Source of the DNA: a virus
Lineage: Duplodnaviria > Heunggongvirae > Uroviricota > Caudoviricetes
Reading direction: 5' to 3' (one strand)
Virus record (IMG/VR): IMGVR_UViG_2574180019_000006
Length of the DNA stretch: 64,000 nt
Both the position numbers and the translations under genes were made by a program. Below are positions 3,573 through 59,294 of the stretch, piece by piece. The notes under the pieces are model-generated. The model made no database searches and was not told the origin of the DNA. It saw nothing but the letters and a program-made list of their open reading frames with translations. Within the stretch, counting starts at the first letter, position 1, and every line of letters starts with the position of its first letter.

Positions 3573-3587
3573 AAAACAAGTTGTTTA
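3573..3587. promoter_or_regulatory. AAACAA-G-TTGTTT palindrome (operator-like)
   Basis: aaaacaagttgttta, 11 nt ahead of the 3598 start, inside a ~50-bp element duplicated at 3040-3110 and 3530-3597. Confidence 0.45.
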
Positions 3588-14368: not shown

Positions 14369-15264
14369 TCGAGATGGCAGATATCATCATCAAACGCTAC
14401 CGCCCTGAAGAGTTTCCGCGTCATCTGGACTTTCTGGAGCGAATGACTGTCACAAAGGGAACTGTAGAGGACTGGCACGCTCTTAAATCGCTTCACTACA
14501 AAACAGACGGCAAACCTTTCGCGCCAACATACTATCGCTGCGAACTGGATGACCGTCTGGTGGGCGTCGTGGTTATGGCTTACCCGAAACTTCTGCTGGC
14601 ACCTCGCCATCGCATGTTTCCTAAGTTGAAACCAACTACCAATACCACCGTGGCTAACCAGTACTGGGGCCGGTACGTGAATAACAACTTTGCGGTGATC
14701 AGCCGCTCAGTTGTGGATACTCAGTACCGTGGCGTAGGCGTCTCTTATCGAATGATTAACCTGGTTAGCAGGATGCATGACCGGCCAATCATTGAGATCC
14801 AGTCATCGATGAGCAAATACAATCCCTTCGCCATGAAAGCAGGGTTTAAGTTCATCCGCCCTGAGCGACCGAAGAGCTATGAAAGTGCACTGCGTGTGTT
14901 CCAGCGCCATTTCCGCTCCGACCCGGGTGATAACGAGGCGATCGTCAAAGAGTTGTTCGCTATGAGCGAGTCTCGTCGTCGCCGTGCACTGCGTGATCTG
15001 GTGGCGGACTACCACAAGAACAGTTCCCTGGCAAAAGCTGGGCGGAATCGTGGCACGACGATTCAGGACATTGCCGACAGTCTGGTGGACGAGGCCAGCA
15101 TTGTGAAGCTGCTCAAGGACATTCACAACCTGAGCTTTACGTCTCCGTTGTATGGTGTGTATCGAAACCCTGACTTTGGTCGTCGACTGCCTGACACGCT
15201 GCCACTGCTGGCATTCGACAAACAACCTTTGGATAAACCGTTAGAAATTGCTTTACCGGCATAA
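14365..15264 (+). CDS. hypothetical protein, possibly GNAT-fold acyltransferase
   Basis: YRGVGVS fits the R/Q-x-x-G-x-G/A acyl-CoA motif; assignment is weak. Confidence 0.4.
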   Translation: MIEMADIIIKRYRPEEFPRHLDFLERMTVTKGTVEDWHALKSLHYKTDGKPFAPTYYRCELDDRLVGVVVMAYPKLLLAPRHRMFPKLKPTTNTTVANQYWGRYVNNNFAVISRSVVDTQYRGVGVSYRMINLVSRMHDRPIIEIQSSMSKYNPFAMKAGFKFIRPERPKSYESALRVFQRHFRSDPGDNEAIVKELFAMSESRRRRALRDLVADYHKNSSLAKAGRNRGTTIQDIADSLVDEASIVKLLKDIHNLSFTSPLYGVYRNPDFGRRLPDTLPLLAFDKQPLDKPLEIALPA

Positions 15265-15273
15265 GGATTTGCC

Positions 15274-15540
15274 ATGACGTTAACCGATAAACAAAAGGAC
15301 ATCATCAAAACGCTCAATCTCGGTTATGAGCGAGGTCATCTACTTGACCTGGACGAATTGCTTGAAGTTTTGCCGTACAAGACAACCAAGCAAAGTATCC
15401 AGTTCTCAATTCGCGCTCTGATAAAAAAGGGGCTGGTGGAGAAAGGGCATACGCGCCAACGCAGTGACAATCGCTATCACCGCCGAACTCTTGGGTTAAC
15501 TACTTTAGGTCGAGCCAAAGCGAAGTTACTGGTGATGTAA
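15274..15540 (+). CDS. small basic protein, possibly winged-helix DNA-binding
   Basis: 88 aa with a helix-turn-like segment (QSIQFSIRALIKKGLVEK) and basic C-terminus. Confidence 0.4.
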   Translation: MTLTDKQKDIIKTLNLGYERGHLLDLDELLEVLPYKTTKQSIQFSIRALIKKGLVEKGHTRQRSDNRYHRRTLGLTTLGRAKAKLLVM

Positions 15541-15564
15541 TCGGTCTGGGAGCTTATTTAAAGA

Positions 15565-15619
15565 CCTGTTTCTGTATATATAAATAATAAGTAACTTATT
15601 AAATATATACGGAAGCAGG
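15565..15619. repeat. 55-bp element, copy 1 (exact duplicate at 51287-51341), containing near-palindrome ATAAGT-A-ACTTAT
   Basis: cctgtttctgtatatataaataataagtaacttattaaatatatacggaagcagg occurs identically at both loci. Confidence 0.7.
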
Positions 15620-15681
15620 CTTCGTAAGACATGCCAGACCTAATTAAACACCCCAGAAAACAAGTTGGTTAGCAGATGCAG

Positions 15682-15697
15682 TAAACAAGTTGTTTTA
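15682..15697. promoter_or_regulatory. AAACAA-G-TTGTTT palindrome upstream of terminase small subunit
   Basis: taaacaagttgtttta, 39 nt ahead of the 15736 ATG. Confidence 0.45.
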
Positions 15698-15735
15698 GAG
15701 CGCATGGACGCGCTCTGTGTGTTTTAGAGGGATCT

Positions 15736-16368
15736 ATGACGGTCGAAAAAGACGAGGTAAAAACTCGCCTGACACCAGCGGAGTGGGCCGAAGCTGAAGC
15801 CAAATGGACGTCAGGCGAATATACACTCTCAAAGCTGGAGGAAGAGTACGGCATTCGTCGTGAAACACTCTCCAGACATTTCAAAAAGCGAGGATTAGAG
15901 AAAGGCGCGGACTCTGTTGGGAAGATGGTTCGTGAGTCTCTTAAATCTGACGCAGAGCTTCGCGCTAAAGCCCGTGCGGAAAAGATAGAAGAACGTCGTA
16001 CACGTTATGACGGCTGGGCGTATGCGTTGGGGCAGATGGTGATGGTCGAAGTCACTACGGCCAAACGTGAGGGTAAGCCTTTAGGGGCGATTGAGGATTC
16101 TCTCAAGAGCTTACAGAGAGCCAGTAATACCCTTGCAAAATGCTTTGAAGTTTCGTCCAAAGCATTGGGCATGGATCATGCGGAAAATGACGAGGAAGAA
16201 ATTCCGAACCTGGTATTTGGTGAGCTTACGCCTTCCCAGGTGGCGAAATTACGTCAGGAAGACGACGAGCCTGAAATCATCGATGACGAATTGCTTGAGA
16301 CGTTGGAAGAAGAAGCTCTAAGCGAATTTGATGCGACAGATGATGGAAGTGAAGGGGAGGACGAATAA
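15736..16368 (+). CDS. terS: terminase small subunit (putative)
   Basis: Directly upstream of the large subunit; N-terminal HTH-like segment and acidic C-terminus. Confidence 0.6.
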   Translation: MTVEKDEVKTRLTPAEWAEAEAKWTSGEYTLSKLEEEYGIRRETLSRHFKKRGLEKGADSVGKMVRESLKSDAELRAKARAEKIEERRTRYDGWAYALGQMVMVEVTTAKREGKPLGAIEDSLKSLQRASNTLAKCFEVSSKALGMDHAENDEEEIPNLVFGELTPSQVAKLRQEDDEPEIIDDELLETLEEEALSEFDATDDGSEGEDE

Positions 16369-17624
16369 TGGCAATCCCGTCCTCGCTCAGTCTTGTGCAA
16401 CTGCATTCTGGACAGATGAAAGTCTTCCAGTCTCCGCATCGATTTAAAGTTGTTTGTGCTGGTCGACGCTGGGGAAAATCCCGGTTGTCGATCTCCACTA
16501 TTATTCGTGCGGCGGCAAAGGAAAAAAAGCAAAGGGTCTGGTATGTCGCTCCTACTTACCAGATGGCTCGCCAGATTTTGTGGGACGATCTACAGGAAGT
16601 TCTGCCTCGTAAGTGGGTTAGGAAAAAGAACGACACCACGATGACAATCGTGTTGAAGAACGGTTCGGAGATCGCCCTCAAAGGTGCTGATAAGCCTGAC
16701 ACTCTGCGCGGCGTAGCGTTGCATTTTGTAGTGCTTGATGAATTTCAGGATATGAAGGCTGACACCTGGTACAAGGTGTTACGACCTACTCTTTCATCGA
16801 CACGCGGCGGTGCACTGATCATTGGTACGCCAAAAGGCTTCTCGGAATTTCACAAACTGTGGACTATAGGCCAGAACGTAGAGCTGCAAAGAAAGGGACA
16901 GTGGAAGAGCTGGCAGTTTGTAACTGCCGATTCTCCGTTTGTGCCTACGGCGGAAATTGAAGCTGCTAAGAACGATATGGACCCCAAATCGTTCGCTCAG
17001 GAGTACCTGGCCAGCTTTGAGAACATGTCCGGGCGCGTTTACTACCCGTTCGATCGTAACGTGCATGTAAAACCGCTTCAGTTCAACCCTCGGTTGCCTA
17101 TATGGGTAGGGCAGGACTTCAACATTGACCCGATGTCTTCAGTAATTTTGCAACCTCAGCCAAATGGTGAGCTATGGGCAATTGATGAATTGGTGCTCTT
17201 TTCCTCTAACACGGCAGAAGTTTGTGATGAGCTTGAGAGACGCTTCTGGCGCTGGAAATCACAGGTAACGGTATTTCCAGATCCGGCAGGTGCTTATCGC
17301 CAACATGCTCGTGGGGAGTCTGACGTAGACATATTCAAAGAGAAGGGATTCTTACGTGTCGATTATTCGAAAAAGCACCCGCCAATTGCGGATCGTGTTA
17401 ATGCTGTTAACCGAATGCTGATGTCCGCATCTGGAGATATCCGGCTGTATATCGATCCGAAGTGCAAGCATTTGATTGATTCACTGGAAAAAGTCATCTA
17501 CAAGCCTGGAACACGAGATATGGATAAGACAGGTGGCATTGAGCATAGTGCAGACGCATTGGGCTATCCAGTACATCGTAGGTATCCAGTCAAAAACCGT
17601 GTTATTCTTGGTGGTTCTCGATAG
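16368..17624 (+). CDS. terL: terminase large subunit
   Basis: Walker A CAGRRWGKS, Walker B HFVVLDEFQDM. Confidence 0.9.
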   Translation: MAIPSSLSLVQLHSGQMKVFQSPHRFKVVCAGRRWGKSRLSISTIIRAAAKEKKQRVWYVAPTYQMARQILWDDLQEVLPRKWVRKKNDTTMTIVLKNGSEIALKGADKPDTLRGVALHFVVLDEFQDMKADTWYKVLRPTLSSTRGGALIIGTPKGFSEFHKLWTIGQNVELQRKGQWKSWQFVTADSPFVPTAEIEAAKNDMDPKSFAQEYLASFENMSGRVYYPFDRNVHVKPLQFNPRLPIWVGQDFNIDPMSSVILQPQPNGELWAIDELVLFSSNTAEVCDELERRFWRWKSQVTVFPDPAGAYRQHARGESDVDIFKEKGFLRVDYSKKHPPIADRVNAVNRMLMSASGDIRLYIDPKCKHLIDSLEKVIYKPGTRDMDKTGGIEHSADALGYPVHRRYPVKNRVILGGSR

Positions 17625-36200: not shown

Positions 36201-38021
36201 GCAATAAAGGCTGCAAGAGATGAAGCGGCGGCTCTTATTGCTAAGGAAAGCGAGGCTCGTGTTGAAGGCGATGCTGCAAACGCTAAACAACTGGAAGTGT
36301 TGCAGTCAACGGTAGAGGAAAGTTCCGCAGCCGTTGAAGAAATGAAAAAGACGGTTGCAGAGGTCGATCGTGCCAGTGCAGAACTGACTACGAACATTGA
36401 AGCGTTAGCTAAAACAAATATTGACCTGGCTCTTCGTCAAGATGAAGACCAGCACAAGCAGATGGTCAATAACGCGAAGATCGCAACAACACAGAAAACC
36501 TTTGCTGATGATATGTCTGCAATGGCCACGAAGGTTGAGGAAATTCGCGTAGAAATTGGCGAAGACATTAAGGCCAGTATTCTGGAAGAGTCCACCGCTC
36601 GTGCCGATGGCGATGAAGCGTTGGCAAAGCGTGTCACTCAGCTGCAATCTAAGTTTGAAGGAGATATCAGCGCGGCGATTAGTACAGAACAGGAGGCTCG
36701 TACATCTGCCGATGAAGCTTTGACGAAACAAATAACTCAGCTTGAGTCGAAAGTAAGCAACGATATTGTCGCAGCCATTAAGGAAGAGCAAGAAGCCCGA
36801 GCAACGGAAGATTCGGCTCTGGCAAGCCAGATCACCCAACTTCAGGCAAAAGTTGATGATGATATTTCTGCTGCAATACGCAGTGAGCAGGAGGCCCGAG
36901 CAAGCGGGGACTCTGCGTTAGCCAAACAAATAAACCAGCTTCAGTCAAAGGTTGACGGTGATATATCCGCTGCCATCACTCAGGAGCAGGAGGCCAGAGC
37001 AAGTGCTGACCAGGCGCTCTCACGAGAAATTAACAGCCTGCGAGCACAAACCGGAACTGATATTGCCGCAGCGGTTGCTGTAGAGACAAAAGCAAGGACT
37101 GATGCCGATAGTGCATTGTCTACCCAGATTACGTCTCTTACAGCAAAAGCTAATGATCTCAAGGCGTCTCTTGCCAGAGAAACAACGGCTCGTGCAGATG
37201 GTGATACCGCTTTAACAAAAGAGGTTTCAAGTTTAAAAGCACAGACAGCGAAAGATATTAGTGCGGCCGTTGCAGTTGAAACGCAGGCTCGAACTGATGC
37301 TGACTCGGCGTTGTCGTCTCAGATCACCAAGCTGACCTCTCAATACAAAGAGGATATTAAAGCGGCTGTAGTAACCGAAACGAAAACGCGTACAGAGCAA
37401 GATGCTGCATTGGCGACTCAAATCACAAACTTAGAGTCTCAAACGGCAGCCAACATTTCCGCGGCGGTCACAACTGAAACGACAGCGAGAACGCGGGCAG
37501 ATAATGCTCTGAGTGGGCGAATCGATACTCTGAAAGCAGAGGTGAATGGAAATACCGCGACAATTCAACAGCAGGCAACAGCTATTGCTGATACCAACAA
37601 AAAAGTGTCAACCGCGTGGACGTTGAAAATGGAGACTTCAACGAGCGGAGGGCAGAAGTATGTTGCCGGTATTGCGCTTGGTATTGACACCACTGGGCTA
37701 TCTCAGTTTTTGGTTCAGGCGGACAGGTTTGGTTTGGTCAACTCTGTTAACGGGAAGATCACAACGCCATTTGTTATCGAAAACAGTATCGCCTATATGA
37801 ATGGAGCGTATATCAAGGATGGCACAATCACCAATGCAAAAGTAGGCGATCTGCAATCTACCAATTTTGTTAGCGGTAGATCTGGATGGCGATTCGGCAA
37901 AAATGGAACGCTTGAGATCAACGGTAATAGCGGCGGCAATGGGCGATTGGTTATAAATGGTCAGCGGATTGACGTTTATGACGATAACAACGTCCTACGA
38001 GTAAGAATTGGCCGTCTGTGA
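33297..38021 (+). CDS. central tail fibre / host specificity protein (lambda J-like) with internal coiled-coil repeat insertion
   Basis: Segments recalled from lambda J (YPNSALVG..SEQFGS, AFGCTSRGQAHRVGLWL, GKITSSELG); ATG at 33297. Confidence 0.9.
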   Translation: MEQFKKKKLPLLIAGAGGKKSKSSSRTPVEADDTVNSRAMAAILDLLGEGVIGGLVNGAKSIFIDDLPILNEDGSSNFSGITWDFRDGSQDQTPMAGFDFVETPKSVNIQLKKTHDVTVSIDNDEADRVRVIMKFPSLRSVDKSSGDTNGTTVKYKFQIANGDATFSDVVAEGEKSVDITLTAKKTGVYYRSYELKLPKPGRAYKVRVIRLTDDNSSQYLYNDTWVDSIGEIVDTPMNYPNSALVGLKVNSEQFGSTMPSRSYLVRGIKIRVPSNYNEYTNTYVGVWDGTFKLLSSSNPAWILYDLLTNTRYGLGQFVSESMIDLGQLYQIGRYCDEEVDDGFGGKEKRFAINTQITSRQDAYRLIQDIAGAFRGMVFWAGGMVNIMQDSPSDPVMMFTNSNVKDGLFTYKGSARKDRPSVALVTYNNKEDGYKQNIEYVEDQDAMRRYGERKTEVVAFGCTSRGQAHRVGLWLLYTARMESDVITFTAGLDASFLMPGETVLIQNKYRAGKRNSGRIVEFTKNSITLDAPVSLAKSGSFIRILNQEGKIVERDVLETGENITKVTFSKALSSAETPVLNGVWTITEPDLEPMRVRIVNIAQGETSGSFDITAVENNPSKYEAIDNGATLIPQNTTVLDPTYSKPSNLQITEGTYLSSPGNLSVKLTATWEGKSPEYWISWRRSDENNVSNWQSARVTEEQYEIVNVAENGRYDFQLYAVSFNGKKTEIISTVYQVLGTMTPPDAPTSLTAVGDYRNVILNWVNPDSVDLDHINVYASQTNNLDTAKLIAESASTTFTHAGLGDSETWYYWVRASNKRGMLSPPNSNLGTEATTRDVLSFLTGKITSSELGQALLEDINSKVSQEAVDELNEHINQSVESLEGAVNDVKEDIAELDKQFSDNLAGFEIKFNERSDALENAQTELKGEVSATIDKVNEAFEKIDATDAAIVEIENTVSEHDKALANTVEAIKAARDEAAALIAKESEARVEGDAANAKQLEVLQSTVEESSAAVEEMKKTVAEVDRASAELTTNIEALAKTNIDLALRQDEDQHKQMVNNAKIATTQKTFADDMSAMATKVEEIRVEIGEDIKASILEESTARADGDEALAKRVTQLQSKFEGDISAAISTEQEARTSADEALTKQITQLESKVSNDIVAAIKEEQEARATEDSALASQITQLQAKVDDDISAAIRSEQEARASGDSALAKQINQLQSKVDGDISAAITQEQEARASADQALSREINSLRAQTGTDIAAAVAVETKARTDADSALSTQITSLTAKANDLKASLARETTARADGDTALTKEVSSLKAQTAKDISAAVAVETQARTDADSALSSQITKLTSQYKEDIKAAVVTETKTRTEQDAALATQITNLESQTAANISAAVTTETTARTRADNALSGRIDTLKAEVNGNTATIQQQATAIADTNKKVSTAWTLKMETSTSGGQKYVAGIALGIDTTGLSQFLVQADRFGLVNSVNGKITTPFVIENSIAYMNGAYIKDGTITNAKVGDLQSTNFVSGRSGWRFGKNGTLEINGNSGGNGRLVINGQRIDVYDDNNVLRVRIGRL

Positions 38022-38114: not shown

Positions 38115-41100
38115 ATGTGGTACAGGGAAGGTACTATCACATTTACACAGGGCAGCAATACTCTGGTTGGGGCAGGGACAGCCTGGAACGTAACAGCTAA
38201 TGGTGTGTTGCCGGGGATGATCGTCATTGGCCCCGACAATAAGCTGTATGAGATCAAGCGCGTAACCAGTGATACGAACATTGTTCTCTCAGAACCTTAT
38301 ACCGGCGAAACTCAGTCTGAAGTTCCGTGCCGAATCATTACGACCTATGAAGGCGACTTAACACAGTTTAGCGCGCGCTTTACTGCGCTAATGTCGCGTA
38401 TGTCGGCTGATTCCAAGTCCATACGCAGTTGGTTGACTGCGCTGGATGAGGTGACAATCGAGCGTGAAGACGGTACAGAAGTGACCGTTAAGCCGCTAAT
38501 GCAGATCGTCAACGAGCACAACGAAAACGTTGAGTGGTATAAAAATAACACTGACGCGATTGATGCTGCTGGCGACAAAGCTCGTGAGGCGGCGGCCAGT
38601 GCTGCCGCAGCAGCAAAAAGCGCCAATGCCGCTGGAGAAAAAGCCTCTCAAGCGTCTCAAAGTGCATCCGCTGCGGCATCCTCACAAAGTGCCGCAAGTG
38701 CGAGTGCAACTGCTGCGAAAAAATCTGAAACGAATGCCGCAGCATCACAAAAATCTGCGGCCACTTCTGCATCCACCGCGACCACGAAAGCGTCAGAAGC
38801 TGCCACCTCAGCCCGGGATGCGTCGGCTTCAAAAGTGGCGGCAAAATCATCAGAAACGAGCGCAGCCTCGAGCGCCGGCAGTGCAGCTTCCTCGGCAACG
38901 GCGGCAGGAAATTCCGCGAAGGCCGCAAAAACGTCTGAGACGAATGCGGATAACAGCGCACAGGCGGCAGCAGACTCACAAACTGCATCGGCAAATTCCG
39001 CGACAGCAGCCAAAAAATCAGAAACCAACGCGAAAAATAGTGAGTCAGCAGCAAAGGTCAGCGAAACCAACGCTAAAGCGTCAGAGAACAAGGCGAAAGA
39101 ATATCTCGACAAGGTCGGGGGACTCGTCAGCCCGATGACGCAATACGATTGGCCCGTTGTTACTGGTAATGAGTCTTTTTACATCAAGATCGCGAAACTT
39201 TCCGATCCCGGAAGCAACAATTGCCATGTAACGCTAATGGTTACTAATGCCGGTAACTACGGCTCCACTTACGGAAACATTGACTTTATCGAGATCTCGG
39301 CGCGCGGTCTACCTTCTTCGCTTACTGCTGATAATGTATCCCGTTACCTGAGTATACGCCGTTTAGGGGCAACCGGGCTGACCGATGACAACCAGATGCG
39401 TTACGGCCTGGTTAAAGGTGATGGCTTTATTGAGGTTTGGGCCCTCCAGCGTGCATTTATCAACGGCGCAAAGGTTGCGGTACTGGCGCAGACGGCACGC
39501 ACGGAATTATACATTCCAGACGGATTTGTTAAGCAAACCGCCGCGCCTTCTGGATATGTTGAAGGCAACGTTGTAAGGATTTACGACCAGGTAAACAAGC
39601 CGACTAAAGCAGATTTGGGTCTTTCTAATGCTATGCTTACAGGCGCTTTCGGTCTTGGCGGTAGCGGGATAGCAACAACCGGCAAGATGAGCGATGTAGA
39701 GATCTTAAAAGCTCTGCGTGACAAAGGTGGTCATTTCTGGCGCGGTGATAAGCCGACCGGAAGTACGGCGACCATTTATAGCCACGGTTCTGGTATATTC
39801 TCGCGGTGCGGCGATACGTGGTCAGCGATCAATATCGACTACTCAAGCGGGAATGTTAAGGTATACGCTGGAAATGATAGAGGTCTTGACGGCGGGACTT
39901 TTAAAGTTAATCAGCTATACGGCTCGGCAAACAAGCCGTCGAAATCGGATGTTGGACTTGGCAACGTAACGAACGATGCGCAGGTAAAAAAAACCGGCGA
40001 TACAATGACCGGTGGGCTTACTTTTGCAAACGACTCAATCCTTGCCTGGATTCGGAATACTGACTGGGCGAAGATTGGATTTAAAAATGATGCCGATGGT
40101 GACACTGATTCATACATGTGGTTTGAAACAGGCGACAACGGCAATGAATATTTCAAATGGAGAAGCCGCCAGAGCACCACAACAAAAGACCTGATGAATC
40201 TTAAATGGGATGCTTTGTCTGTTCTTGTTAAAGCCCTTTTCAGCAGTGAAGTAAAAATATCGACAGTCAATGCACTGAGGATTTTTAATTCATCCTTTGG
40301 TGCTATTTTTCGCCGTTCTGAAGAAAGCCTGTATATCATCCCTACACGAGAAAATGAGGGTGAAAATGGAGATATTGGGCCATTAAGGCCATTCAACATC
40401 AACTTAAGAACAGGAGTTGTGTCTGTTGGTCATGGACTAAATGTTACTGGTGGCGTTAATGGTAGTTTGAACGGTAATGCTTCAACAGCTACGAAGTTGC
40501 AGACTGCGCGTACTATTAATGGGGTGTCGTTTGACGGTTCTAAAAACATTGAGCTAACTCCAAGGTCTATAGGAACGATCAACTCAGCAACAATGTCTTT
40601 TAGTGGTGGTGCCGGATGGTTCAAGCTGGCAACTGTAACCATGCCACAGGCCAGTTCCGTGGTTTACATAAGCCTGATTGGTGGTGCAGGGTATAACGTT
40701 GGCTCCCCGCAGCAAGCAGGCATCTCTGAGCTGGTTCTGCGTGCCGGAAATGGAAATCCAAAGGGTATTACTGGTGCATTATGGCGACGGACATCGGTTG
40801 GATTTACTAATTTTGCATGGGTGAATACATCCGGTGATACCTATGACATTTATGTAGAAATAGGTAATTACGCCACAGGTGTTAATATCCAGTGGGATTA
40901 TACAAAGGATGCAACTGTACAAATTCATACATCACCAACTTATACAGCGAATAAACCAACTGGTCTTACTGATGGAACGGTATATGTCATTTACAGTTCG
41001 CACATTAAACCGACCGCCACGGATGTCGGCGCATTACCAATAACCGGAGGAAATCTCAACGGCGGTTTAACGGCTACTGGTGAGATCATTTCAAAATCGG

Positions 41101-42473
41101 CGAATGGTCTGCGCATTGCCTACGGAAACTACGGATTCTTTATCCGAAACGATGGTTCAAACACATACTTCATGTTGACCGATTCGGGTAACAGCCTGGG
41201 AACCTATAATAGGTTAAGGCCGCTTATCATTAACAATGCCAATGGTGCTGTTACGATCGGTAATGGACTCAATGTTACTGGCGGCATCAATGGTAGTTTG
41301 AACGGTAATGCTGCAACTGCAACAAAACTGCAAACAGCACGCACAATAGGCGGCGTGTCATTCGATGGCTCCGCCAATATCAACCTGCCGGGTGTAAACA
41401 TTGCTGGTAACCAGAACACAACCGGTAATGCAGCGACAGCGACCAAGTTACAAACTGCTAGAACTATAAATGGGGTGTCGTTTGATGGTTCTAAAAATAT
41501 TGAGCTAACGGCGGAAGATTTAAATCTTGAGCAAACTGTAGAATTAGCCGCAGGAGCATTGCAGAAAAACCAGAACGGCGCAGATATACCGGGAAAAGAT
41601 ACCTTCACAAAAAATATTGGTGCATGTCGCGCTTTTCACAGTGCTATTAGTACAGGGGCAGGGAACTGGACAACGGCACAATTGATTGAATGGCTGGATT
41701 CTCAAGGGGCATTCAATCACCCATACTGGATGTGCAAATGTTCATGGTCATACGGCAATAATAAAATTATTACCGATACTGGCTGTGGAACTATTCATCT
41801 TGCAGGTTGCGTTATTGAGGTTATGGGTAATAAAGGTGCCATGACCATCCGTGTAACCACCCCGAGCACTTCCAGCGGTGGCGGAACTACTAATGCACAA
41901 TTCACTTATATTAATCATGGTGATGCTTATGCTCCTGGCTGGCGACGAGACTACAACACGAAAAACCAGCAGCCTGCATTTGCTTTAGGGAAAACAGGAG
42001 GCACTGTCGGAAATGATAAAGCTGTTGGCTGGAACTGGAATAGCGGGGTCTATAACGCAAATATTGGTGGCGCAACGACATTAATCCTCCATTTCAATAT
42101 GAGCGAGGGGAGTTGCCCTGCCGTACAGTTCCGTGTGAATTATAAGAACGGCGGTATTTTTTATCGTTCAGCACGTGATGGTTATGGCTTTGAAGCTAAC
42201 TGGTCAGAGTTTTACACCACAACACGCAAACCCTCTGCGGGAGATGTTGGTGCATATACGCAGGCAGAATGTAACTCAAGGTTTATTACAGGTATTCGCC
42301 TTGGCGGTCTGTCATCTGTTCAGACATGGAATGGTCCTGGCTGGTCTGACAGGTCAGGTTATGTCGTTACAGGTTCAGTTAACGGAAACCGTGATGAATT
42401 AATTGATACAACTCAGGCAAGGCCAATTCAGTATTGCATTAATGGAACGTGGTATAACGCGGGGAGTATTTAA
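38115..42473 (+). CDS. side tail fibre protein
   Basis: N-terminal Ala/Ser/Thr repeats (KKSETNA...), internally duplicated Ig-like segments, followed by an assembly-chaperone gene. Confidence 0.85.
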
Positions 42474-48075: not shown

Positions 48076-50655
<2,580 letters not shown>

Positions 50656-50701
50656 TAGCGGAAACGGAATGGGGAAACTCATTCCGTTTTTGTTTATCGC
50701 C

Positions 50702-51046
50702 TTAGACGGCAAAAGTGCTGTCGCCCACCTGCGCTTGCGCATACCAGGCCATAAGCTCCGTGGTTCCTGGTTCTCCTTCCGCTGGAGCCCAGTGCGCATA
50801 GTCATCGGCAGCCACGGGTTGATAGCCACCGTGTTTTACTTCAAAAATTATGCCACCGGTATCCAGCGACAGCACGGCATGCCAGGTTCCTGCGGCCATC
50901 TCCAGCACCGTACAGGTTTCCCCCAATATCGCCCGATGGGTGACGGTACCCCGATCGTCAAAATTCAGCACCACGAAACGACCCCTTAATGGCAACAGTA
51001 GCTCGAAGGTGTGAGGGTGTCGGTGCGGGCGCACGTAGGTCCCAGG
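50702..51046 (-). CDS. orf477 fragment (cupin-like), 5'-truncated at the unit boundary
   Basis: Minus-strand frame stays open up to 51046, where the unit ends. Confidence 0.75.
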   Translation of the reverse strand, partial: PGTYVRPHRHPHTFELLLPLRGRFVVLNFDDRGTVTHRAILGETCTVLEMAAGTWHAVLSLDTGGIIFEVKHGGYQPVAADDYAHWAPAEGEPGTTELMAWYAQAQVGDSTFAV

Positions 51047-51286
51047 TCATATTCCTTCCGGCGTCCGGCATTTTACCGCCAGACAGCTCGGGATTCGTGA
51101 TATCACCGTTCTTGCAGAATACGGTTAGTATTTAGCCTTATCCAATGATCTCGCGTATACCGATAAATCGTCCATTATTGCATCTCTTTGCTACTGACTA
51201 ATGCGTTCTATTTTACACATAAGTTTTTAATCAATTTAACAGGCTCAAAGTGTAGAGCTTCTGGGCGTCTAAGACGACAAGTTATG

Positions 51287-51341
51287 CCTGTTTCTGTATA
51301 TATAAATAATAAGTAACTTATTAAATATATACGGAAGCAGG
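51287..51341. repeat. 55-bp element, copy 2 (exact duplicate of 15565-15619)
   Basis: Identical sequence upstream of the 51458 gene. Confidence 0.7.
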
Positions 51342-51457
51342 TCTTTTAAAAGACACCACCAGAACAACTCCCTTCCGTTTCCACTTCCAAAAACTGCCAC
51401 CAGTCGCTATCATCCGCTCATTGTGATAAGTAAGTAACTACCTACCAGGTGAGCCAC

Positions 51458-52198
51458 ATGAGCCAAATCTTTTTCGATACCATCGACAACGACCAGTACG
51501 ACTTCATGACAGAGTGGAATACCGCTGTTATGGACAAGTGGGTCGCTGAAAACATTGGTTTGTCGCGCTGTAAAGACGAGGCTGAACTCTTCGAGACGAA
51601 GTGGTTTGATTACCGCGACATGCATCCTCTCATGGCCACCTGTCTTTTTACGGAGGCATACAAACGTCAGTACTCAAATATCATGCTGACGCACGGTCGC
51701 GAACACTTTGAAACAGCTCCGTTCACCACCGGGTTAAAACGCCTGCCTTATCAGGAGTTGTCGACTGCCAATAAAACGTCGCTATGGAAAGCACGCCAGT
51801 TTGCGGATCGCTATTGCTGCTCATACGACTACTTTATCTCCACCGTTCTTTCCGCAGCTGCACGACGGCTGTGGGACAAGCTGCCGCGCCCACAGCATTT
51901 GTGGCAGCCAGAACTGATTGAGATATTTGAAGAGAAATTAGCCAGACGCGCAACAACCCGTCTGGATGACTCTCTGGTTAGCTTTAAGCATATGGGAGAC
52001 ATGCAGTTCAACCCGATTCAGGAAAGCTATTTTGAGTGGATTCTGGAGCGTTTGCGCACCATCCCTCGCAGCAAGCGCATACGCGCAATTTTCTCCGCTA
52101 TCTGGCTAATGGAAATCGTTCCAGAGCGCCTTATTTCCGCCCACTTTCCAGAAGAACTGGAAGAAGCACGGCGGTTTATTGATCCCCTATCTAATTAA
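51458..52198 (+). CDS. hypothetical protein (about 246 aa)
   Basis: ATG at 51458 after AGGTGA; track start 51449 is GTG. Confidence 0.55.
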   Translation: MSQIFFDTIDNDQYDFMTEWNTAVMDKWVAENIGLSRCKDEAELFETKWFDYRDMHPLMATCLFTEAYKRQYSNIMLTHGREHFETAPFTTGLKRLPYQELSTANKTSLWKARQFADRYCCSYDYFISTVLSAAARRLWDKLPRPQHLWQPELIEIFEEKLARRATTRLDDSLVSFKHMGDMQFNPIQESYFEWILERLRTIPRSKRIRAIFSAIWLMEIVPERLISAHFPEELEEARRFIDPLSN

Positions 52199-59141: not shown

Positions 59142-59216
59142 GATGGTGTAGCTCAGCGGTAGAGCAGTTGGCTGTTAACCAACTGGTCGGTGGTTCGAAT
59201 CCACCCACCATCGCCA
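59142..59216 (+). tRNA. tRNA-Asn (anticodon GTT)
   Basis: Cloverleaf folded by hand: 7-bp acceptor GATGGTG/CACCATC, anticodon loop CTGTTAA, T loop TTCGAAT, encoded CCA. Confidence 0.85.
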
Positions 59217-59218
59217 AT

Positions 59219-59294
59219 GCCGGTTTAGCTCAGTTGGTAGAGCGCCTGCCTTGTAAGCAGGATGTCAGCGGTTCGATCCCGTTAACCGGCACCA
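59219..59294 (+). tRNA. tRNA-Thr (anticodon TGT)
   Basis: Acceptor GCCGGTT/AACCGGC, anticodon stem CCTGC/GCAGG with loop CTTGTAA, T loop TTCGATC, encoded CCA. Confidence 0.85.

Follow-up and report, generated by a model that had tools for sequence, protein, structure and literature searches.

In the window, by which we mean the whole stretch of 64,000 nucleotides analysed here, an 88-aa gene is followed by a gene in the terS position and by the TerL gene, and far downstream an insertion with ISEcp1 and blaCTX-M is followed by a 249-aa gene that heads an operon for a DnaB-like helicase and a primase (Table 1). Each of the two gaps, between the 88-aa gene and terS and between the insertion and the 249-aa gene, contains a copy of the same 55-bp element. 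The core of the first copy (site A) begins 24 bp past the stop codon of the 88-aa gene and ends 116 bp ahead of terS (15736). The second copy (site B) is located 160 bp past the end of the ISEcp1-blaCTX-M-orf477-Tn3-remnant insertion and 107 bp ahead of the 249-aa gene (51449), in direct orientation to the first and at a spacing of 35,722 bp. The copies agree at 55 of 55 positions, as found by direct reading, by a repeat search and by blastn-short, and the identity is confined exactly to the element, which is flanked by AAAGA and CTTCG at site A and by TTATG and TCTTT at site B. Since only about 1e-24 exact 55-bp repeat pairs are expected in 64 kb of random sequence (own arithmetic), the duplicate cannot be attributed to chance. 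A sequence-only reading of this DNA had pointed out the exact duplicate, its position upstream of terS and of the gene beside the resistance insertion, and its near-palindromic character; the alignments, the gene coordinates and the arms described below confirm all three. What it had missed are a third conserved site, the spread of the element through a whole family, and an enclosing hairpin of about 105–115 nt.

Table 1 Features around the two copies of the element in the window
Feature	Position	Strand	Remarks
88-aa gene	15274..15540	+	PHROG 900; weak winged-helix matches
Site A outer stem, 5' half, GGTCTGGGAG	15543..15552	+	Starts 3 nt past the stop codon of the 88-aa gene
Site A core, 55-bp imperfect palindrome, arms CCTGTTTCTGTATATAT / ATATATACGGAAGCAGG, AT-only centre	15565..15619	+	Orthologues in relatives
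Site A outer stem, 3' half, CCAGACC	15634..15640	+	Pairs with the 5' half
Small GC hairpin with T-run in the terS leader, canonical terminator-like	15696..15727	+	Downstream of site A; kept in relatives
terS-position gene	15736..16368	+	PHROG 867, 'DNA binding domain'
TerL	16368..17624	+	Directly follows the terS-position gene
ISEcp1 transposase, blaCTX-M, orf477, Tn3 remnant	48262..51126	+	Transcribed toward site B
Site B outer stem, 5' half, TTCTGG	51259..51264	+	G-to-T compared with site A
Site B core, identical to site A over 55 bp	51287..51341	+	Orthologues in relatives
T-tract TCTTTTAA, directly 3' of the site B hairpin	51342..51349	+	Tail score 2.57
Site B outer stem, 3' half, CCAGAA	51359..51364	+	Pairs with TTCTGG
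249-aa gene, heads the DnaB-like helicase-primase operon	51449..52198	+	All-alpha fold

The flanks of the element match Escherichia phages CMS-2020a, PhiR41_1 and Cyrano (pLF82), Salmonella phage SSU5 and Klebsiella relatives, as well as 798 plasmid records from Klebsiella, Escherichia, Enterobacter, Yersinia (pMT1), Salmonella and others. These matches identify the window as an SSU5/pHCM2-type phage-plasmid of E. coli with ISEcp1-blaCTX-M. Of the complete E. coli genomes, about 5% have an SSU5-like phage-plasmid; such phage-plasmids, which carry ESBL genes, are also frequent in Klebsiella, Enterobacter, Salmonella and Yersinia pestis (pMT1). All known resistance-gene insertions in these elements share one locus (PMC9600943), and in the window the insertion adjoins site B on the upstream side. 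The insertion (48262–51126) comprises ISEcp1, which is of the IS1380 family, and a Tn3 remnant of 82 bp, and truncates a backbone gene on the minus strand; the phage backbone resumes at 51126.

In complete E. coli genomes the element was found in 258 of 5,426, at 403 places, all of them on plasmids and with one to three copies per genome. A dispersed repeat of the REP or MITE type was rejected on account of this low copy number and because none of the 403 places is chromosomal. Among the matches listed for these 5,426 genomes there is no annotated feature under the element, and neither a description nor an annotation of it was found in the records and papers searched. Rfam gave no match to the element at the gathering score; two adjacent tRNA genes at 59142–59291 (75.5 and 73.1 bits) were the only Rfam families found in the window. 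The element offers a precise and easily searched marker of three module borders, one that is unannotated in every record examined.

The third site emerged when IMG/VR was scanned with a pattern for the arms and the contexts of the resulting 120 loci were sorted by tblastn of the neighbouring proteins. Three contexts were present: site A, in the gap that separates the 88-aa gene from terS; site B, ahead of the 249-aa gene, helicase and primase and downstream of the par/cargo region; and site C, which is outside the window and is located 27 bp past the stop codon of dam, with a small gene following after about 119 bp. The structure of sites A and C starts 3–27 nt after a stop codon and ends 107–120 nt before the next start. 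A complete Enterobacter plasmid carries exactly these three copies, and in NZ_CP070135.1, the closest complete relative, site C is about 31 kb from site A. The synteny of the three sites is constant, and the asymmetric centre of the element has the same orientation relative to transcription at all of them. On the IncY plasmids pLAO59 and pD228 (L157, L158), site B travels together with the 249-aa gene, helicase and primase. These plasmids have a P1-type replicon and a single copy of the element, within a block of toxin-antitoxin genes, parAB, site B, the 249-aa gene, helicase and primase; the block is a hybrid between phage-plasmid families.

In this imperfect palindrome, GC-rich arms (CCTGYTTCYG) surround an AT-only centre of about 35 nt, and a weaker outer stem encloses the whole element. 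Its parts follow each other in the order CCTGTTTCTGTATATAT-AAA-TAATAAGT-A-ACTTATTA-A-ATATATACGGAAGCAGG. The outer arms of the window copies are 17 bp long, with two imperfect positions that are both T·G on the + strand, and the inner palindrome TAATAAGT/ACTTATTA measures 7–8 bp. The centres of the two copies are the sole 35-nt stretches with a GC content of 9% or less in the whole window, the mean of which is 45.8%. As RNA, the core is predicted to fold on the + strand with −28 kcal/mol (z = −6.3 to −7.0); the value for the − strand is about −19 to −20.

Inclusion of the outer stem extends the structure to about 105–115 nt in the window. The extended fold on the + strand then reaches −46 kcal/mol at site A (108 nt; z = −9.85) and −40.1 kcal/mol at site B (z = −6.5), with −34.1 and −35.6, respectively, on the − strand. 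Most copies at sites A and C have GGTCTGGGAG upstream and CTCCCAGACC downstream of the core, motifs that are not common elsewhere in the window, and the flank-to-flank duplex energies of −18.5 at site A and −19.1 at site C are to be compared with about −11 when the partners are shuffled. Site B copies have often lost their upstream partner. Complementarity is kept despite sequence change: in the window the G-to-T exchange in the stem of site B is offset by C-to-A in its partner (GTCTGG/CCAGAC vs TTCTGG/CCAGAA), and outer stems within the same genome may differ and still be complementary (AACTGGAGT/ACTCAGTT in L028_A vs GTCTGGG/CCCAGAC in L082_C). Lineage-specific inner segments are likewise symmetric, and the linkers between core and outer stem are unequal, with lengths of 9–26 nt. 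Covariation of the outer stem in combination with unequal linkers favours a hairpin formed by a single strand over a duplex binding site or a cruciform. RNAalifold, applied to a MAFFT alignment of all sites, recovered the lower stem alone because the linkers misalign. Regarding strand preference, the + strand gives the better fold at sites A and B, the − strand often does so for variants of site C (11 vs 2), and a comparison of sites A, B and C gave no consistent G·U asymmetry between the strands.

The IMG/VR set was chosen by the arms and can be no proof of their conservation, for which relatives retrieved via flanks or proteins were used instead. In relatives obtained independently of the arms, including those with 76–82% flank identity, the arms are unchanged. 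The same arms are present at site A in Klebsiella at 76–78% flank identity, in Kluyvera and Yersinia relatives, and in a relative with 64% identity in the 249-aa protein, while a relative with 90% TerL identity has kept the lower stem CCTGCTTCC/GGAAGCAGG together with a CTTTT tail. The variation that is found in the arms is restricted to positions 5, 6 and 9 and occurs regardless of pairing; what is repeated from site to site and from genus to genus is the arm sequence, and not pairing alone, and there is tolerance of C·A mismatches on the + strand. The centre is free in sequence but remains AT-only, with 31–37 nt and 6.7–7.7% GC in 45 distinct variants. Selection on the element, one of two alternatives in the sequence-only reading, is supported by the unchanged arms. 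In the comparison with relatives which that reading had called for, the element is kept throughout the family. Morganella relatives (82% TerL identity) have no copy at site A or site B, with the neighbouring genes kept, and a Xenorhabdus relative (82% TerL identity) has none at site A.

The exact identity of the two window copies is a more local phenomenon. Sites A and B are identical in several genomes of the E. coli lineage, and NZ_CP023851.1 and similar plasmids share this state with the window, whereas many other genomes have unlike types at the two sites, including mosaics of a 'Salmonella-type' and an 'E. coli-type'. Since the types differ in many genomes, identity of A and B is not required for function. 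Both window copies have a derived T at arm position 5, a variant that is otherwise seen at site B in relatives. The identity is best explained by gene conversion, or else by descent from a common ancestor, in the E. coli lineage, and the recent conversion that had been the other alternative of the sequence-only reading agrees with the shared derived T and with the restriction of the identity to this lineage.

The element can be described as a palindromic hairpin at the borders of gene modules, which most likely ends transcription rather than starting it. With moderate confidence we take it to be a boundary hairpin that acts at the level of the transcript, as a terminator or insulator. The lower stem, which has 10 bp and about 70% GC in the family consensus arm CCTGCTTCCG, is a stem of the kind that is found in intrinsic terminators. 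The second hallmark, a U-tract behind the stem, differs between the sites. At site B the mean tail score is 2.88, and a score of at least 2.5 is reached in 22 of 24 variants, compared with 2.9% of background positions. The mean at site C is intermediate (2.01), and at site A it is 1.40 (1.19 for the window copy), with a U-tract in 0 of 22 variants. A simple terminator scan flagged neither copy in the window.

Published RNA-seq data for a relative bear on the function of site B. In Cyrano (pLF82), the upstream and co-directional genes CYRAN_28-30 have log2 FPKM values of about 8–10.8 under induced and macrophage conditions, and CYRAN_31, the 249-aa gene downstream of site B, has values of 2.3–4.2 (PMC9928086 S1 Table). 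According to these numbers, which are per-gene values from a relative and not from the window and represent the lysogenic state only, the RNA level drops more than 100-fold across a co-directional gap of 193 bp. Folding identified site B as the sole strong structure in this gap, and we infer that its hairpin causes the drop. The data concern site B alone, since the genes upstream of sites A and C are silent in the lysogen.

In the mechanism that we propose, the RNA of the + strand would fold into a long hairpin with a GC-rich lower stem of 10 bp (CCUGYUUCYG / CRGAAGCAGG) and an AU-only upper part, to which the outer stem GGUCUGGGAG / CUCCCAGACC would usually be added. This hairpin would mark the 3' end of the upstream transcription unit and insulate the next module. 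At site B, hairpin and U-tract together would form an intrinsic terminator, which would keep transcription of maintenance and cargo genes, here ISEcp1-blaCTX-M, out of the lytic helicase-primase operon. If the site B terminator indeed shields this operon, that would help to explain how the strongly transcribed ISEcp1-blaCTX-M is tolerated. Site C, with its intermediate U-tract, would be a weaker terminator. Because there is no U-tract at site A, the hairpin there is more likely to serve in stabilisation of the 3' end, in pausing or in processing, and a separate small terminator would be available 77 nt downstream. Both this role of the site A hairpin and the notion that the RNA form of the element is active, and not the DNA form, are inferred from the folds and flanks described above. 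Several observations speak against a terminator or a 3'-end role: site A (15565–15619) has no U-tract, a strictly AT-only centre of 31–37 nt is atypical and looks prone to DNA unwinding or cruciform formation, the arm sequence recurs with C·A mismatches tolerated, G·U asymmetry is not consistent among the sites, and site B does not always mark a 3' end, its upstream neighbour being encoded on the opposite strand in some lineages.

Comparison with known systems shows likenesses as well as differences. Like intrinsic terminators, both the rho-independent type in general and bidirectional ones, the element combines a GC-rich stem with a U-tract (at site B) and a position after a stop codon, its A-rich 5' flank pairs with its T-rich 3' flank, and RNA drops across it in a relative. 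Unlike these, it is a 55-nt hairpin, or one of about 105–115 nt if the outer stem is counted, of which the upper part is AU-only, the same arms are found at three sites and across genera, and site A is without a U-tract. The lambda tI/sib and T7 intergenic RNase III sites are, like the element, multi-copy, similar-looking long intergenic hairpins of one phage, and in the predicted fold of the element, as in nesting of the tI/sib type, an inner hairpin is enclosed in a longer one that could be formed in read-through RNA alone. In the predicted fold, the element has a near-continuous helix of about 24 bp with an internal loop, a geometry that would be compatible with such RNase III hairpins, although there is no sequence similarity to the hairpins of lambda tI/sib or T7. 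By analogy, the element may well work like an intrinsic terminator and recalls the nested terminator/RNase III hairpins of lambda and T7, a view that we hold with about even confidence.

Other parallels are found at the DNA level. The herpes simplex virus (HSV) origins oriS and oriL consist of inverted initiator boxes around an AT spacer and are present in three copies per genome. The element shares with them the inverted conserved boxes, an AT-only spacer and the three copies per genome, but has a covarying outer stem and a U-tract, and no initiator was identified here. Phage-plasmid N15 has dispersed palindromic centromere sites near phage operons, and the few palindromes scattered near phage operons of the present phage-plasmids are similar in this respect; however, the partition proteins are of the small type Ib kind, and site B is the only one of the three sites that is near par. 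Resemblance to loxP exists in the arms, which contain CTTC(Y)GTATA, close to CTTCGTATA of loxP, and in the host, an enterobacterial phage-plasmid with a tyrosine recombinase as in the case of Cre/loxP. In contrast to loxP, the spacer has 21–27 bp instead of 8, and three direct copies are present without rearrangement. A lox- or dif-type site of a tyrosine recombinase was rejected in view of this spacer, which is not 6–8 bp, and in view of the finding of 0 recombinant junctions in the PLSDB records that match two test queries. An integron attC site (RYYYAAC ... GTTRRRY) was rejected as well, the arms CCTGYTTCYG/CRGAAGCAGG being without GTTRRRY.

Several other explanations can be weighed against a hairpin that acts in the transcript. 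The element could be a palindromic cis site that acts as DNA, with inverted protein-binding sites flanking an easily melted AT-only spacer, an explanation that is possible but that we consider unlikely. Within this explanation fall a lytic origin or helicase-loading site in three copies, as well as a hairpin or cruciform target of an SbcCD-like nuclease that starts recombination-dependent replication. In its favour, the arm sequence recurs even though pairing mismatches are tolerated, and the centre, variable in sequence, is limited to AT-only composition and 31–37 nt; the two centres are the most AT-rich spots of the window. Site B directly precedes the 249-aa gene, DnaB-like helicase and primase and moves with them into IncY plasmids, the family encodes DnaE, helicase, primase, SbcCD-like proteins and a recombinase, the three sites are distributed around the circle at intervals of roughly 28–44 kb, and the G·U pairs show no strand-consistent bias. 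Against such a role stand the covarying outer stem and the Morganella relatives, which do without the element at sites A and B while keeping the genes next to it. No recognisable initiator was identified, and the GC skew, which tracks gene orientation with no inflection at either copy, is uninformative. The more specific proposal that the elements are DNA-level lytic origins or programmed hairpin/cruciform break sites on a circle of about 108 kb, termination at site B being a side effect, appears rather doubtful. In any case, the element is a compact object for asking whether a conserved palindrome acts as RNA or as DNA. It seems improbable that the element is only a recombination substrate or a 'linker' at module boundaries, serving exchange between phage-plasmids or rearrangement between A and B. 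Homologous recombination could plausibly use 55 identical bp in direct orientation, and there are traces of exchange: the homology to relatives is interrupted at the left edge of site B, where matches start at window positions 51277–51284, A and B types are shuffled across genomes, half-element replacements give rise to arm mismatches (L018_C vs L011_C), and the cargo locus abuts site B. However, recombination would leave the palindrome, the AT-only centre, the outer stem, the fixed orientation and the U-tract unexplained, and the order of sites A, B and C is the same throughout. Moreover, neither chimera of an A×B junction was found as a single place in the PLSDB records that match the two queries (255 and 592 plasmid records, with 0 chimeric junctions), so that the recombination between the copies that the sequence-only reading had proposed is not supported at the level of these records.

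The position of site A directly upstream of terS, the usual place of pac and cos, raises the question of a packaging site used by the terminase that is encoded downstream, to which we attach only a slight chance. The GenBank record of SSU5 ends with ...ACTTATTA and begins with AATATATACGG..., that is, inside the site A element, and a headful mode of packaging would tolerate several pac sites. Yet there are three copies per genome, two of which are distant from the terminase genes, an assembler break at a repeated hairpin would yield the same start of the SSU5 record, and the start of the Cyrano record is not independent, having been re-oriented to match SSU5. None of the IMG/VR contig ends is located inside the element, and relatives with 80–82% TerL identity are without it. 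The TerL itself is of the T4-like/Terminase_6 (Terminase_6N) type, with P74-26 and Jersey-, T1- and T5-like enzymes, and not the cos terminases of lambda and HK97, as nearest neighbours; its relatives are from headful and direct-terminal-repeat phages. A cos site in particular is weakened by the copy number, the type of TerL and the non-independent Cyrano start. Least credible of all is a promoter or operator for the downstream operons, even though the element is AT-rich with TATAAA-like strings and both copies are upstream of operon starts. A consensus scan for sigma-70 promoters, with hexamers at a spacing of 16–18 nt, gave no match in 15200–15800 and none in 51000–51600, RNA in Cyrano falls and does not rise across site B, and the best −35/−10-like hexamers of the site B leader on visual inspection (TTCCAA/TATCAT) follow the end of the element at a distance of more than 40 nt. 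A different and much more frequent motif, AAACAAnTTGTT, marks gene starts. The promoter-like sequence that had been noted from the letters alone is thus not supported, in view of the absence of sigma-70 matches in these two regions and of the more than 100-fold drop in Cyrano RNA across site B.

Some further observations were made on the records and relatives. The SSU5 record NC_018843.1 (L001 1–18; L002 1964–2000) is cut inside the site A palindrome, which represents either a physical end or an assembly break, and the Cyrano record copies this start with an offset of 1 nt. In a Morganella psychrotolerans relative (L135 2850–2895, L141 1825–1845), which has the 55-bp element at neither site A nor site B, the leaders of terS and of the 249-aa gene share a different 18-nt motif, ATGGGAGCACGGCTTAGA, and this hints at cis elements that are shared by these two operons and specific to the lineage. 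Distant relatives have other hairpins in the gap between the 88-aa gene and terS, an observation in favour of a boundary hairpin. In Chitinibacter, this gap contains an ordinary GC hairpin with a T-run, an ordinary terminator. Faunimonas pinastri (L150 1733–1798), of which the TerL is 60% identical, has an unrelated palindrome of 66 bp upstream of terS, with perfect arms (CCGCGCGTTCAAATA...TATTTGAACGCGCGG) and an AT-rich centre, possibly the counterpart of the element in this distant phage-plasmid.

Within the window, the palindromic motif AAACAAnTTGKT is present in 11 copies, compared with 0.25 expected, and is found just upstream of gene starts. It occurs at 3574, 4478, 5241, 15658, 15683, 46870 and 52210, with a looser family at 2695, 3072, 3556 and 63399. 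Two of these motifs precede terS, one precedes parA and one the helicase gene, and several are placed before early genes; the motif is a candidate for the operator or promoter element recognised by a global phage regulator. The small hairpin at 15696–15727 (GAGCGC...GCGCTC) is located between AAACAAGTTGTT motifs and the ribosome-binding site of terS, and resembles an attenuator, or a target of antitermination, of the late operon. The tail and tail-fibre genes contain in-frame tandem repeats of 99 bp and diverged repeats of 87–128 bp (window 36687–37034 and 40413–41509). In Cyrano, CYRAN_81 (78657–78791), an open reading frame of 45 codons between the gene that follows site C and RNase H, is among the highest-expressed loci in the lysogen (about 117 FPKM vs a background of about 10) and may be a small RNA or a small protein.
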